A stretch of 64,000 bases of DNA from an uncultured Candidatus Saccharibacteria bacterium (GTDB lineage: Bacteria > Patescibacteriota > Doudnabacteria > UBA920). Where the stretch lies: positions 128-64,127 of the forward strand of contig CAZTXY010000001.1 in the NCBI GenBank assembly GCA_964617815.1, given 5' to 3'. A model generated the notes under the pieces. It was not told where the DNA came from. It was given only the letters and a program-made list of their open reading frames with translations, and did no database searches. Positions 28,798 through 49,409 of this stretch are shown here, in pieces; the first letter of the stretch is position 1, and each line of letters starts with the position of its first letter. Position numbers and translations under genes: made by a program.

Positions 28798-29112
28798 TTA
28801 TTTTAGCTTATATCTGTACTTTTCGATATCCACAAGAAAGTCTGCCCCCACAAAGACCCCATCTTTCTGGAGTAACTCTCTTTGTAACTCTTTTGTAACT
28901 TCCCAATTTCCTTTAATACTAATTTGCCCTTTATTATTAATCACGCGCCACCAAGGAACGTTTGAGCCTTGCCCAAGAGCGCGTAATATCCCTCCAACCT
29001 GCCTGCTAGCTCTAGGACTGCCGGCATTTGCTGCGACCTGGCCATAACTAACCACAGCACCCTTTGGCACCGACTTTACAAATACTATGACTCTATCCTT
29101 AAAATCACTCAC
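28798..29112 (-). CDS. alkyltransferase-like (ATL) protein: MGMT DNA-binding domain without the active-site Cys
   Basis: VVSYGQVA...PWWRVIN, where Trp replaces the Cys of the PCHRV motif. Confidence 0.65.
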   Translation of the reverse strand: MSDFKDRVIVFVKSVPKGAVVSYGQVAANAGSPRASRQVGGILRALGQGSNVPWWRVINNKGQISIKGNWEVTKELQRELLQKDGVFVGADFLVDIEKYRYKLK

Positions 29113-30733
29113 TGGTTTTTGTTTTAAAATTATTTAAAAAAGTCACCACACGCTCGTCTAATTTTATATCATTTACATGGATAGGGCGTTGAAGTGTAAT
29201 ACCCTGCAACGTGCGACAACGCGAAAGTGCTACATATAATTGCCCATGCGCAAATGTTCCCGTCCCTAAATCAATATGAACTTTACTAAAAGTTTTTCCT
29301 TGACCTTTGTGAATTGTCACAGCCCAAGCCAGCTTTATTGGATATTGCGTAAATGATCCGATTACTTCGCTTTCTATTTTATTTGTTTCTGAATCAAAGA
29401 CATACTTAAAAAATTCCCAAGTGTACGGCTCAATCTGCTGTGTCGTGCCGTCTTCCAACTCTACTATTATATTATCTGCCTTATCTTCCTGTTTTTGAAA
29501 ACTTAAAATTTTTCCCATGGTCCCGTTAACCCACCGGCTTTCCATGTCATTATTAAGCAACATAACCTGTGCACCCTCGCGCAACGTTACTATCTCTTCT
29601 GTAGGCAGACGACTACCTGAAAAAGTTCCGTGAAGACGCCCGCGATATTTTTTTGCCTCTCCAAAAAGTTTGTTTAAATGTGTCTGATTAATAGCTGAGG
29701 CACGGCTATTAGTCGTAGTCAAACTGATAATAAAATCCCCTTCCTCATATTGAAAATCTGGGTTAACCTGATTGTTTAAATGTGCCAAATCCTCATCTGT
29801 CGTGCAATTATCACGAACCGCATTTAATAAATTAATAAAGACTTCATCTTTTTGACGATAGACAGTTTCCAGTTCAATTAAACGGCAATCAATTTGGTTA
29901 AACACGTGAGCATCAAAAAAATATGGCGTAGCGTATTCTCCAAATAAATTAGCACCAGAATCCTCCGAAACGGCCTCCACAGGTGGAAGCTGGTAAAGGT
30001 CGCCAATAAAAACAAGCTGGTAACCCCCAAATGGGGCGTGCGAACTGCGACCATTAAGACGCAAAAATTTATCCAAACAATCCAAAAGGTCAGAGCGCAC
30101 CATAGAAATTTCGTCTATTATTATAGTGTTTAACTTTTGCAATAATTTTCTTTTTGGCTGATATGGCTTTAGCTGTTTTACTCGTCCAACAGTAATGTCT
30201 GCCGGAAAACCGCAAAACGAATGAATTGTTTGGCCTTCGACATTTAGCGCAGCCACTCCTGTTGGCGCTAACACCACAACCTGCTTTTCTGTGGTTGCCC
30301 GAAAATAATTTAGTAACGTAGATTTTCCCGTACCAGCACGTCCAGTAATAAAAACATTGCTATTGCTGTTATTTAAAATCTGCAGTGCATTTTTTATTTG
30401 TGGATTCTGGTCCATGACTGGAATTTCATGAATAGAGCCATGGGCGATACCAGATTTCTTTTTTTTGCTAAGTGTTCGAGCTGGATTTTTGGCACCTATT
30501 TTACTAAGCCGCGAAGTAATAGCCCCCGGGTTGCGTCCGTAATGACCAACGGCCCATTCGACAAAGCCCCCGTAATCTTCGGGCATGCCTTGTTCTTTTT
30601 GCATAAACTTTTCCCAATCCTGTTTTAATTCATCCAACTCTGAATCTTTCCAAGGCTCATAAGCACGCGGAAAAGTCTTGCGAATTTCCAAAAGTTCTTC
30701 TGGTGGTGGAATGCTATGTGCCATGATATTCAA
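29105..30733 (-). CDS. Pif1/RecD-like SF1 DNA helicase
   Basis: Walker A GRAGTGKST, DEISMV and the C-terminal TIHKGQGKTF motif. Confidence 0.75.
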   Translation of the reverse strand: MNIMAHSIPPPEELLEIRKTFPRAYEPWKDSELDELKQDWEKFMQKEQGMPEDYGGFVEWAVGHYGRNPGAITSRLSKIGAKNPARTLSKKKKSGIAHGSIHEIPVMDQNPQIKNALQILNNSNSNVFITGRAGTGKSTLLNYFRATTEKQVVVLAPTGVAALNVEGQTIHSFCGFPADITVGRVKQLKPYQPKRKLLQKLNTIIIDEISMVRSDLLDCLDKFLRLNGRSSHAPFGGYQLVFIGDLYQLPPVEAVSEDSGANLFGEYATPYFFDAHVFNQIDCRLIELETVYRQKDEVFINLLNAVRDNCTTDEDLAHLNNQVNPDFQYEEGDFIISLTTTNSRASAINQTHLNKLFGEAKKYRGRLHGTFSGSRLPTEEIVTLREGAQVMLLNNDMESRWVNGTMGKILSFQKQEDKADNIIVELEDGTTQQIEPYTWEFFKYVFDSETNKIESEVIGSFTQYPIKLAWAVTIHKGQGKTFSKVHIDLGTGTFAHGQLYVALSRCRTLQGITLQRPIHVNDIKLDERVVTFLNNFKTKTSE

Positions 30734-31445: not shown

Positions 31446-31451
31446 CGCAAA

Positions 31452-31485
31452 GCGCCACAGCCTACCAACTGGTAGGTTGTGGCGC
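31452..31485. terminator. bidirectional terminator
   Basis: 15-bp stem GCGCCACAGCCTACC/GGTAGGTTGTGGCGC with one G-U pair, 4-nt loop, immediately after the island-B stop. Confidence 0.6.
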
Positions 31486-31497
31486 TAAAATTTTATA

Positions 31498-32211: not shown

Positions 32212-32258
32212 TTATAAATAATATCATATAGGCAAAAAAATGCCAAAATAATGAAAAT

Positions 32259-32283
32259 GCAGGGAGCTTATTCAGCTCCCTGC
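32259..32283 (-). terminator. terminator after the island-C operon
   Basis: Perfect stem GCAGGGAGC/GCTCCCTGC followed by a T-run on the minus strand. Confidence 0.55.
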
Positions 32284-32313
32284 ATTAAGCGCGCGTAGTT
32301 TGCGCAAAAAAAT

Positions 32314-32562
32314 CTAGTGCGTTTCGCCCCGAAGGCGGACGACCCGAATGACGTGTGGCTTCACGTAATTCGGGTGACGATGACAGCCTGGGCAACCGAG
32401 CTGTAGTTCATACATCATGCCCATTTCTCGCTTTAGGCCTTCGGCCAAAGTAATGACTTCCTGTCTGGAGAACTCCTCAGGATCTAGCCTGGCGGTGAAC
32501 TCTCGTCCTGGCTGAAGCGCGATACTAACCCGCAAAATATCGCAAGGTGTTGCAAGTGACAT
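32314..32562 (-). CDS. small CPGC/His-motif protein, island-C paralogue 1
   Basis: 82 aa; AGGAGG RBS 5 nt upstream; C-terminal GCPGCHRHPNYVKPHVIRV; paralogous to the upstream gene. Confidence 0.5.
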   Translation of the reverse strand: MSLATPCDILRVSIALQPGREFTARLDPEEFSRQEVITLAEGLKREMGMMYELQLGCPGCHRHPNYVKPHVIRVVRLRGETH

Positions 32563-32576
32563 GGTTTCCTCCTGGC

Positions 32577-32855
32577 TTAACAGACATAGTCTGTGCCGGA
32601 TATGCTTGTGGCCACAGCCAGGTTTAAAACTTCCCGCCTGACCACCAGTACGTGATTAATCGGCTGGCCCTCATGACAACTACACCCAGGGCAACCGCCG
32701 CCGTGTTCCGTGACGCAGAACTCACGAGCAAGTTCTGCTTGCAAGCGCGCAATACGTTCAGCCGTAAACTGGTACCGCAACTCTGCGGCAAAGCTTTGGC
32801 CTTCGCGCAAAGTCCGAGCAAGAGCCATAACCCTTGCTGGCGTCATCAATTCCAT
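32577..32855 (-). CDS. small CPGC/His-motif protein, island-C paralogue 2
   Basis: 92 aa; GGGAGG RBS; C-terminal GGGCPGCSCHEGQPINHVLVV aligns with paralogue 1 (TP...L, GCPGC, HV..V.R). Confidence 0.5.
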   Translation of the reverse strand: MELMTPARVMALARTLREGQSFAAELRYQFTAERIARLQAELAREFCVTEHGGGCPGCSCHEGQPINHVLVVRREVLNLAVATSISGTDYVC

Positions 32856-32903
32856 GAGCCAACCTCCCTTCTCTCAAATGTCCTCCGTCAAAATCGATCC
32901 CAA

Positions 32904-32932
32904 AGTCTAGCACACTTACGTTAGTTAATCAA
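32904..32932 (-). promoter_or_regulatory. putative promoter for the island-C operon (TTGATT-17-TAGACT)
   Basis: Read on the minus strand between the terminator hairpin and the paralogue-2 start. Confidence 0.4.
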
Positions 32933-32940
32933 GGCAAACT

Positions 32941-32968
32941 AAAACGCCTTGGCAAGCCAAGGCGTTTT
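32941..32968. terminator. bidirectional terminator
   Basis: Perfect 12-bp stem AAAACGCCTTGG/CCAAGGCGTTTT; serves the pilin gene above it. Confidence 0.6.
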
Positions 32969-32982
32969 AGACTAACTATAAT

Positions 32983-33444
32983 TTATCTAGTTACTGAAAT
33001 AGTTTCCGACAACTCTGCGCTCGGCGCAGAGACTGTGATTCTGTTAGTAGTACTATCTTTTACAATACTATACCCAGTACTGTAGTCACTACTGCTGGCA
33101 AAGTGTGCACCACTACTTGATGGATCAAACGGTAAAGTAGATAAATAATTTGGAGAAAGGCAATTTGCAATATCATACCCGCCAGAACTTGCCATATTAC
33201 TAGCAGTTGTGGGAATGTCACCGCTACTGCAAGTAAAGACACCTTTATTATCAACCATATTTTGACCAACTGCATTTAAGATTGCATTAACATTACTAAC
33301 TCGCTGTGTATTGCGACTTTGTGCAAACTGTCGCCCTGGATTTATAGCGACTAAAACTATAGTTGCTAAGATTGCGATTATGCCAATTGCGACCAAGATT
33401 TCAATCAAAGTAAATCCCTTTTGGGGAAATTTATGTGAGTTCAT
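32983..33444 (-). CDS. pilA: type IV pilin (major pilin-like)
   Basis: Prepilin leader plus KGFTLIEILVAIGIIAILA N-methylation/cleavage motif. Confidence 0.8.
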   Translation of the reverse strand: MNSHKFPQKGFTLIEILVAIGIIAILATIVLVAINPGRQFAQSRNTQRVSNVNAILNAVGQNMVDNKGVFTCSSGDIPTTASNMASSGGYDIANCLSPNYLSTLPFDPSSSGAHFASSSDYSTGYSIVKDSTTNRITVSAPSAELSETISVTR

Positions 33445-47963: not shown

Positions 47964-49409
47964 TTAATTTAAGTTCTCTGTTTGGCTTAATTTTCCGAAA
48001 ACTACAAGGCGACGGGCAGTAGTATTTAGTGGCCAGCAAGTTGAGAGAGCCACGACTGAATCTGCGGTGCTGGCGAACTGAGCTTGGTCATTGGCTTTGT
48101 ACTCACCACGGCGAGTAACCACATAATTATAACGAACTTGTTTGCCGTTTTTCAAAATTACTGTAACAGAGAAGGAAGAACCATCTGCTAGATTGCCAAG
48201 CTTGCTAAAGACTGTTTTGTACTTATTATTACTCCAAGCATAACCACTGCTGTGTCCAGAAATATAGGCAGTACCGACTTGTCCTGGAAGAGAAGTGCCA
48301 GGATAATGCGCAACACCTTGGCTTAAGTCTTTGTCAAAACTTGCTACGTTCTTTGTCCATACAACTGGCACTGTAACGTTTAAGGATGGGATATTCAGGC
48401 TTCCAAAACTATTTAAATTTATATCAGTACTTGTAACGCCGGTGACTGGAGCAGTGGAACGAGTCTGCCCATTTGTTGATGGTTGAGTTTGTGTGGTCTG
48501 AGATGGTGACTGTTCTGTAGTGATGCCTGCAACACTTCCCGACTCTGAACTAAAACCTTGGCTACCTCTGAAGTCTGTACTGTTTGAAGTTTGCTCAATA
48601 ACTGAAGGTGTACTGATACTACCCAGAGCGATACGGTTAGAGATAACTTCTAGATCAAAATAATTATCAACCAAGTCTTTACGGTTACCGACAAATGGCT
48701 GGAGTGTTACCGGGTCGATGCCTTCAACGACAAGCTGGCCGTCTGCAGTACCATTTCCACTTGTGCTATATTCTTTTGGATTGAGGTTCAATAAATACTT
48801 TTGAAAGTTTGATAGTCCATTCTGTGAATTATCAGCTTCGGGATCAATAACTGAATTATCACTAACATCAAAGTAGAACTGAGAAATCCAAGCACTATAA
48901 TTTTTTGATTGAGCCTTTATCAACTCTTCCATAGCAGATGCCTTTTTGGTATTGCTGGAACTAGAAATAGAAACGCGGTTCTTCAAAAAATTATTTAGTG
49001 AAAAGTCGTTAAAATAATAATTATAGAGGAATATTCCGATAGCGAAGACTAAGACGTATGGCCCAACCATGCGCACAAATGGAGGAATGCGTGGTTTTGT
49101 AGCTTTGGCCACATCAGCCTCTAAAGCAGAGTCAATTTCCACGACAGTCTTGTTTGGCTCTGGGAATGTTTCTGGAGTTTCAATTTCTTCAGTGCTAACA
49201 TCAAAAGGCTGATTGCTTTCTACAGCAACAGCATCAATAACTGGCAACTGACCTGGAAAATGACTTGGTACTTCCTTCAGACCAGCGTTCAGTTGTGTTC
49301 CTGTACCGAACCCCAATAAATCAGCTACGCTGTCGGTTGCAGGAGGATAAATTTTGCTAGATTCGGCCATAAAACTAGGTTTATTTGTTAATAGATTATA
49401 ATACCACAA
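47964..49409 (-). CDS. membrane-anchored protein with C-terminal sortase-like transpeptidase domain
   Basis: TM helix near residue 110; C-terminal His (YISGHSS), Cys (VALSTCWP) and Arg (TARRLVVFG) in sortase order. Confidence 0.55.
   Translation of the reverse strand: MWYYNLLTNKPSFMAESSKIYPPATDSVADLLGFGTGTQLNAGLKEVPSHFPGQLPVIDAVAVESNQPFDVSTEEIETPETFPEPNKTVVEIDSALEADVAKATKPRIPPFVRMVGPYVLVFAIGIFLYNYYFNDFSLNNFLKNRVSISSSSNTKKASAMEELIKAQSKNYSAWISQFYFDVSDNSVIDPEADNSQNGLSNFQKYLLNLNPKEYSTSGNGTADGQLVVEGIDPVTLQPFVGNRKDLVDNYFDLEVISNRIALGSISTPSVIEQTSNSTDFRGSQGFSSESGSVAGITTEQSPSQTTQTQPSTNGQTRSTAPVTGVTSTDINLNSFGSLNIPSLNVTVPVVWTKNVASFDKDLSQGVAHYPGTSLPGQVGTAYISGHSSGYAWSNNKYKTVFSKLGNLADGSSFSVTVILKNGKQVRYNYVVTRRGEYKANDQAQFASTADSVVALSTCWPLNTTARRLVVFGKLSQTENLN

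Follow-up and report, generated by a model that had tools for sequence, protein, structure and literature searches.

Small prokaryotic proteins with C(P)XCG motifs are common, mostly unannotated and regarded as zinc fingers (PMC6562870). Here we characterize two adjacent small genes, A and B, on the minus strand of a 64,000-nt stretch of contig CAZTXY010000001.1 from an uncultured Candidatus Saccharibacteria bacterium (this whole stretch is called the window), whose products of 92 and 82 amino acids (aa) share an invariant C-x2-C-x2-H-x6-H set of residues. The open reading frames (ORFs) match an earlier, preliminary description of this DNA in adjacency, strand and length. The explanation we prefer, with a probability of about 0.4, is that A and B share a transcript and are coupled in translation, adopt the same fold with one structural Zn(II) per chain, function jointly as a binding module, probably in the form of a heterodimer, and were acquired horizontally.

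BLASTP aligned A with B at 33% identity over 76 residues (E 5e-9), and an independent third member of the family, P0004, matched A and B at E 3e-10 and 7e-9, so the paralogy originally proposed for the pair is borne out. A residual repeat can still be seen between the two motif regions at the DNA level (79% over 24 nt). Since A and B align end to end, they are two full-length copies and not halves of one frameshifted gene, a possibility that the preliminary description had itself raised. Both also evolve as coding sequences: against the orthologues at loci L001 and L007, which represent two further lineages, the ratio of nonsynonymous to synonymous change (dN/dS) was 0.23–0.34 for A and 0.08–0.13 for B (flanking genes, 0.07–0.30), and substitutions were in excess at third codon positions. 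These values indicate that both genes are under purifying selection. Each of four aligned lineages retains the start, the stop and the ribosome-binding site of both genes, and at one locus (L006) B was left uncalled by the gene caller, yet an intact ORF exists there. In an AT-rich genome, a GC-rich patch is often an RNA. The pair, being such a patch, might be a structured non-coding RNA with incidental ORFs; compared with 20 shuffled sequences, its transcript folds modestly better (z = -3.06), and a 14-nt inverted repeat lies within the 3' end of B. Against this, and equally against a single split gene, stand the signals kept in four lineages, the occurrence of P0004 as a stand-alone 80-aa ORF, and dN/dS values well under 1 with changes mainly at third positions; in addition, Rfam gave no match at gathering thresholds in the whole window, and only chance-level ones at E <= 1. 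On selection, full-length copies, kept signals and the Rfam result together we therefore exclude both readings, which we rate as next to impossible.

Two local peculiarities appear in the same alignments. Between A and its L001 orthologue (window 32577-32855 vs L001 10001-10270) synonymous divergence (dS) reaches 1.08 at 66% aa identity, and the tail is replaced, with an indel; the dS values vs L001 are 0.29 for B and 0.26–0.58 for flanking genes. This suggests either faster evolution of A or a recombination patch confined to it. In B, the inverted repeat just mentioned (32342-32375, minus strand; ACCCGAATGACGTG / CACGTAATTCGGGT, 93% complementary) spans codons between the two ligand His and falls within a ~70-nt stretch that is nearly free of synonymous change among four lineages, which may be due to chance or to a constraint acting on the RNA or DNA.

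The family is defined by its invariant residues. Over all members the core reads E-x3-G-C-x2-C-x2-H-x6-H-x-[LI]-x-V, and in six aligned sequences the invariant columns (A numbering) are P6, L16, G19, F22, A24, L26, L38, E50, G54, C55, C58, H61, H68 and V72, that is, core hydrophobics plus exactly one C-C-H-H set, while the remaining Cys and His vary. Mutual identity among the three subfamilies (A types, B types and P0004) is ~31–37%, and the four ligand-type residues are retained in 5/5 A variants and 7/7 B variants. From this invariance we predict that A and B bind metal. The preliminary description had written the motif as GCPGC(H/S)(R/C)H...P..HV and seen in it a metal- or redox-binding fold. 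The C, C, H and H of that pattern are indeed invariant, which fits a metal site, but the pattern as written is restricted to the window. Elsewhere the Pro-Gly can be replaced by QG or YT (CQGCSAH in the A orthologue P0002, CYTCPRH in P0004), and because neither residue is conserved the redox reading of CPGC is weakened. The extra Cys/Arg position is not conserved either (P0002 has CQGCSA in place of CPGCSC in the window's A), His61 of B is a Tyr in all six other B variants (the B-type orthologues read CPGCYRH), and the '...P..' spacing is true of A but not of B. The tails of A (32577-32630) and B (32314-32335; compared with L001 10220-10270) are variable and predicted to be disordered. Every A and B variant nevertheless terminates in a potential metal ligand, His or Cys (..DYVC, ..ALIH, ..ETH, ..ESH), and P0004 has no tail.

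AlphaFold2 models, built with the small family alignment, gave a compact domain for B (pLDDT 88.5, pTM 0.74) and a less confident model for A (pLDDT 74, residues 79-92 below 50). The order of elements is the same in both: (beta-bridge)-helix-strand-helix-strand-[ligand-bearing loop]-strand. In the B model C57, C60 and H63 form isolated beta-bridges, like a metal knuckle. When the models were compared with known structures by Foldseek, as the preliminary description had proposed, no match at E <= 0.001 was found in the PDB (A and B) or BFVD (A), and hence no significant structural neighbour. The top matches were sub-structures of class I methyltransferases, chiefly TrmI/Trm61 (E 0.011–0.3), and an uncharacterised 79-aa Erwinia phage protein was also listed (E 6.5e-3). 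The predicted fold bears on the idea that A and B are precursors of ribosomally synthesized and post-translationally modified peptides (RiPPs), in which a helical leader would be conserved and the core would be rich in Cys. The genes are tandem paralogous small ORFs with Cys in their C-terminal part, and CPGCSC in the window's A resembles CxxCSC, the metal motif of nitrile hydratase alpha subunits. However, the compact globular model incorporates the motif; the supposed core is conserved and the tail variable, the reverse of what RiPP precursors show; the third Cys of CxxCSC is lost in P0002 and absent from B and P0004; and no gene for a modifying enzyme, transporter or protease is adjacent. 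We consider RiPP precursors very improbable.

Homologues were sought by a word-indexed search (5.8 billion clusters) and an exhaustive HMMER profile search (1.84 billion representatives). The former returned solely P0001 and P0002 (A-type) and P0003 (B-type), and the latter added one distant protein, P0004 (80 aa, E 8.5e-9); two other profile matches, P0005 and P0006, were discarded as repeat-protein artefacts, and a profile search with P0004 included as a member gained nothing further. The A orthologues are P0001, P0002 and P0008-10, and the B orthologues P0003 and P0011-16. P0004 is encoded on a 1.1-kb contig (L010), where it is preceded by the 3' end of recR and by a divergent ORF of 91 aa, and its composition is native to that contig (gene GC 0.42, contig GC 0.41). 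It is apparently a single gene; since the contig ends 28 nt past its stop codon, a second tandem copy could lie downstream. An ATG 9 nt past the stop opens a frame, MFIAPA.. (L010 1113-1131), that runs off the contig end and has a faint likeness to the family N-terminus M-x-L-x-T-P, six codons being too few for judgement. Whether queried with single sequences or with the profile, Pfam, NCBIfam, PHROGs, PADLOC and the PDB sequences yielded no match, or noise at E >= 0.09. In tblastn searches, neither phages (queries A, B and P0004) nor plasmids (query B) contained a match at E <= 1. A back-translated motif scan of 2.9 million viral contigs yielded two chance matches, each with stop codons, and no member; the same scan of JGI metagenome contigs yielded 59, about the number expected by chance on our own estimate, and the sole member among them was the known A/B contig. 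The single match to B in a scan of GTDB genomes (L011, Anaerolineales) was dismissed as spurious, since the strand opposite it carries an uninterrupted GAF/PAS histidine-kinase frame and the match stops at the seeded QLGCPGCH word, without His-x6-His. The window itself holds no further A/B paralogue. Altogether, these searches describe an extremely narrow family, one lineage plus one singleton, that is absent from curated libraries and new as a sequence family, in agreement with the initial view that neither protein can be placed in a known one.

The layout of the locus (Table 1) points to joint expression. Each gene has the perfect ribosome-binding site that had been noted for it, GGGAGG for A (conserved in the lineage alignment) and AGGAGG for B. 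The stop of A and the start of B are 14 nt apart, and the presence of AGGAGG inside this spacer suggests translational coupling; the terminator scan found no terminator between the two genes. Ahead of A we infer a promoter, TTGATT-17-TGcTAGACT, read from the sequence. It scores 8/12, under the threshold of the consensus scan, and is kept in 4/4 aligned lineages, its sole variable base being the n of TGn. The 45-nt leader is conserved along with it. The pair was said to be flanked by strong terminators, and hairpins were found on both sides; the upstream one doubles as the terminator of a pilin (N_methyl) gene at 32983-33444 and shows no variation across the four lineages. Terminator-like hairpins are frequent here, six in the region vs 1.8 +/- 1.5 in shuffles. 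With a promoter-like site of their own and terminators on both sides, A and B therefore appear as an autonomous bicistronic unit between two other transcription units.

The composition of A and B is foreign to the host genome. Their GC is 0.54 each, with a 200-nt maximum of 0.555 (the ~60% reported at first was too high), in a window with a low overall GC of ~0.36, and GC at third codon positions (GC3) is 0.54–0.55 vs 0.21–0.34 in neighbouring genes. A contains no lysine and B two, with nine arginines in each. All known relatives carry the pair at the identical site, between the pilin and a SurA-like gene, so that the search for conserved neighbours suggested earlier does find it kept together, and DNA identity among relatives at this site is 86–90%, similar to the flanks. 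A-B probably arrived by horizontal transfer before the known strains diverged, its donor being an unsampled lineage of higher GC, and purifying selection has kept it since. The earlier term 'foreign cassette' is thus apt as regards the GC3 contrast and the unit's own promoter-like site and terminator, and not as regards mobility: in the repeat scan the island had no convincing target-site duplications or flanking repeats, whether direct or inverted, and the site is fixed in relatives.

A foreign unit that comprises two small genes on one transcript, has a promoter-like site and a terminator to itself and is extremely patchy in distribution might also be a conflict or addiction module, that is, a toxin/antitoxin-like, anti-defence or 'moron'-type pair that is selfishly maintained. 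In one relative (L009) an IS200/IS605 Y1 transposase lies ~1.6 kb from the pair. Several results speak against such a module. The partners are paralogous and have the same fold and motif, unlike known toxin/antitoxin pairs; PADLOC, Pfam, NCBIfam and PHROGs hold no match, and the phage, plasmid and viral-contig searches gave none; all relatives have the pair at one and the same place in the chromosome, without flanking repeats; and both genes are under purifying selection. We therefore do not retain the toxin/antitoxin suggestion of the preliminary description, and regard a conflict module of any kind as improbable.

In the explanation we prefer, a single transcript would run from the promoter-like site through the leader, A, the spacer with its AGGAGG, and B to the terminator. 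The products would be cytoplasmic proteins of ~9–10 kDa, with a predicted (beta)-alpha-beta-alpha-beta, knuckle loop, beta topology that places the four ligands on the knuckle loop and at the start of the final strand. There they would coordinate one metal ion tetrahedrally, most probably Zn(II) in a structural role. The ion would stiffen the beta-hairpin, much as the C(P)xC knuckle is stiffened in other small zinc-finger proteins of prokaryotes. The paralogues, made in equal amounts, would act jointly, probably as a heterodimer that binds another macromolecule and performs no catalysis. Several points weigh against this explanation. We know of no zinc-finger class that the C-x2-C-x2-H-x6-H spacing fits, and two Cys plus two His are also able to hold a [2Fe-2S] cluster or copper. 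The heterodimer is suggested by paralogy and operon layout only, with P0004 apparently a single gene. A and B are near-neutral (isoelectric points 6.3 and 7.8; P0004, 10.1), which lends no support to the nucleic-acid binding that the preliminary description had named as an alternative. Lastly, among the relatives no empty site lacking A-B was found by exact-sequence look-up of the window's pilin, and neither a donor lineage nor a mobility signature came to light, so the case for horizontal transfer is made from composition.

The ligand set also allows for the main alternative, a metal with a function of its own. Two Cys and two His are the ligands of Rieske-type and Apd1-type [2Fe-2S] clusters, and A and B might accordingly carry a bis-His/bis-Cys [2Fe-2S] cluster or transfer Cu, Ni or Zn, as a metallochaperone or small redox carrier with the tail as a swinging extra ligand. 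Among PDB sequences, they are matched best by the [2Fe-2S] loop of PyrK, the electron-transfer subunit of dihydroorotate dehydrogenase B; E50, the invariant Glu, stands five residues ahead of the first Cys; and the A and B tails, otherwise variable, all end in His or Cys. However, the PyrK match is non-significant (E 0.54) and the PyrK ligands are four Cys, the order CxxC then H..H differs from the CxH...CxxH of Rieske proteins, P0004 lacks the tail, the Pfam scan gave no match to HMA, CopZ, NifU or Rieske models, and the neighbourhood contains no genes for metal homeostasis, Fe-S assembly or redox partners. Nothing was found in favour of the earlier chaperone/partner and metallochaperone suggestions. 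A functional centre of this kind is doubtful. Its most specific form, a heterodimer with a redox-active or transferable Cys2His2 centre (for example a non-Rieske bis-His [2Fe-2S] cluster on a fold new to it) that a symbiotic reduced-genome bacterium acquired from an unsampled donor, seems unlikely; if a redox or transferable centre were true, the pair would represent a new class of small metalloprotein.

The neighbours of A-B give no functional hint, and the unit is insulated from their transcription. On its upstream side is a type IV pilus/competence-like operon, with T2SSE, T2SSF, an LVIVD beta-propeller protein and several pilins of the N_methyl type; on the downstream side come a membrane-anchored SurA_N-like protein, a GC-rich orphan of 183-190 aa on the other strand and a PIF1 helicase. 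This orphan, whose dN/dS of 0.10 vs its L001 orthologue marks it as a real gene, is followed by a very strong terminator with a 16-bp stem (31451-31486), and it flanks the SurA-like gene on the side opposite A/B. Where the window (29105-30733) and L003 have the PIF1-like helicase, L009 has the IS200/IS605-type Y1 transposase (2033-2698); the region just past the orphan therefore varies between strains. Other GC-rich genes are scattered over the window (Table 1), and BLASTP found no resemblance among these islands or between them and A/B. The 104-aa orphan has a dN/dS of 0.27 vs its L001 orthologue and a composition extreme for this genome, and the 396- and 255-aa orphans have signal-peptide-like N-termini and adjoin a sortase-domain protein (47964-49409). 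The 64 kb encode a sortase, glycosyltransferases and type IV pilus-like components, along with many proteins that Pfam does not match, and no tRNA genes (ARAGORN) or Rfam families at gathering thresholds were found; this gene content, together with the low GC, suggests a reduced, Patescibacteria-like genome.

Table 1. Coordinates in the window of the A-B unit, its putative signals and other GC-rich genes.
Feature	Position	Strand	Details
Gene A	32577..32855	-	92 aa, ORF list; core residues 1-74 alpha/beta, tail 75-92 variable, low-confidence
Gene B	32314..32562	-	82 aa, ORF list; paralogue of A
C-x2-C-x2-H-x6-H site of A	32652..32693	-	Residues 55-68, CPGCSCHEGQPINH; invariant (C55, C58, H61, H68)
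C-x2-C-x2-H-x6-H site of B	32353..32394	-	Residues 57-70, CPGCHRHPNYVKPH; invariant
Upstream intrinsic-terminator-like hairpin	32939..32970	-	14-bp stem, terminator scan; 15-nt arms 100% complementary
Promoter-like site of A-B	32904..32932	-	TTGATT, 17-nt spacer, TAGACT after TGc (extended -10)
Shine-Dalgarno GGGAGG of A	32863..32868	-	7 nt before ATG
Shine-Dalgarno AGGAGG of B	32568..32573	-	5 nt before ATG, within the A-B spacer
Downstream terminator of A-B	32256..32286	-	13-bp stem, then T-run; terminator and repeat scans
Promoter-like site of SurA-like gene	32246-32218	-	Consensus scan; downstream of the A-B terminator
Orphan gene, 183-190 aa	30873-31486	+	GC 0.51, GC3 0.57, isoelectric point 10.2; no Pfam/PADLOC match
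Orphan gene, 104 aa	40548-40862	+	GC 0.61, GC3 0.80; opposite strand to neighbours; no Pfam match
Two adjacent orphan genes, 396 and 255 aa	45800-47773	-	Most GC-rich stretch of the window (0.55-0.57); no Pfam match
Orphan ORF, 346 aa	16439-17479	-	GTG start, GC 0.50, GC3 0.55; no Pfam/PADLOC match

If our explanation is true, A and B would belong to a new and very rare family among the poorly charted small prokaryotic metal-binding proteins, with an unusual Cys-x2-Cys-x2-His-x6-His arrangement of half-sites on an alpha/beta scaffold. They would also be part of a wider pattern, in which a reduced genome of low GC carries several GC-rich orphans under purifying selection whose donors are missing from databases of 15 billion proteins. 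Small prokaryotic Cys/His-knuckle proteins are already numerous (PMC6562870), so the kind is familiar. The pair in itself opens no long-standing question.

Several known families share some traits with A and B. In TusA/SirA proteins (PF01206; E. coli TusA/YhhP, PDB 1dcj) these are a length of ~80 aa, a predicted beta-alpha-beta-alpha-beta-beta order, a Pro at the N-terminus of helix 1 and an 'x-x-G-(E/Q)-x' turn into strand 2 that hhalign puts in register, and 1dcj is among the Foldseek matches of the A model (rank 37, E 0.53, TM 0.44–0.48). By sequence, membership is rejected, with no Pfam match at E <= 10 and a probability of 3% by hhalign against four TusA-family PDB sequences; the catalytic Cys of CPxP is replaced in the A/B family (M-T-P-A, A-T-P-C, M-V-P-S, with no invariant Cys there), and TusA has no Cys/His knuckle in its beta3-beta4 hairpin. 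Class I S-adenosylmethionine (SAM) methyltransferases of the TrmI/Trm61 type have the same helix/strand/helix/strand/strand succession (B vs 5eqj_A, E 0.011, TMq 0.53; best for A, E 0.13–0.2), but these matches are non-significant, with root-mean-square deviations of 4–8 A, and A/B would cover about one third of the methyltransferase domain; A and B lack the GxGxG SAM-binding loop and any sequence match, and the methyltransferases lack the Cys/His knuckle. The zinc ligands of tRNA-guanine transglycosylase (Tgt) are three Cys plus a distant His (CxCxxC...H), and 8 of the 59 metagenome motif matches were Tgt genes ('..E(E/N)xCGCxxCxxHSRxY(I/L)RHL..'). This likeness is a chance local pattern in a TIM-barrel enzyme, and the surrounding sequence is unrelated.

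Other classes were rejected on the motif or its setting. Rubredoxin-like, zinc-ribbon or C(P)XCG membership requires two knuckles with four Cys, and A and B have one CxxC knuckle. The classical C2H2 zinc finger (C-x2-4-C-x12-H-x3-5-H) differs in spacing, its His lie in a helix rather than in a loop and at a strand start as in A and B, and no zf-C2H2 match was obtained. A c-type cytochrome was considered for CPGCH, a CxxCH of the haem-attachment kind, which occurs solely in the window's B (CPGCY in 6/6 other variants); no signal peptide is evident in A or B. For a thioredoxin-fold CxxC oxidoreductase there was no Pfam or NCBIfam match, the CxxC lies in a loop after strand 3, and its middle residues vary (PG, QG, YT). 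The nitrile hydratase alpha site, C-(S/T)-L-C-S-C, is approached by CPGCSC in window-type A only, the corresponding residues being CQGCSA in P0002, CPGC(H/Y)R in B and CYTCPR in P0004.

The C(P)XCG micro-proteins, such as Brz and the other one-domain zinc fingers of Haloferax and Halobacterium, resemble A and B in being shorter than 100 aa and in the Cys-Pro-x-Cys knuckle (GCPGC in A and B); mixed Cys/His ligands occur among them (Brz is C3H), and they are mostly unannotated and often regulators that act by binding (PMC6562870). They are not detectably related to A and B in sequence. In the A/B family both the Pro and the position following the second Cys vary, and the second half-site is His-x6-His in place of a second CxxC(G) or CxxxH. 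Finally, theirs is a minimal finger, whereas the site in A and B is set into an alpha/beta domain of ~75 residues.

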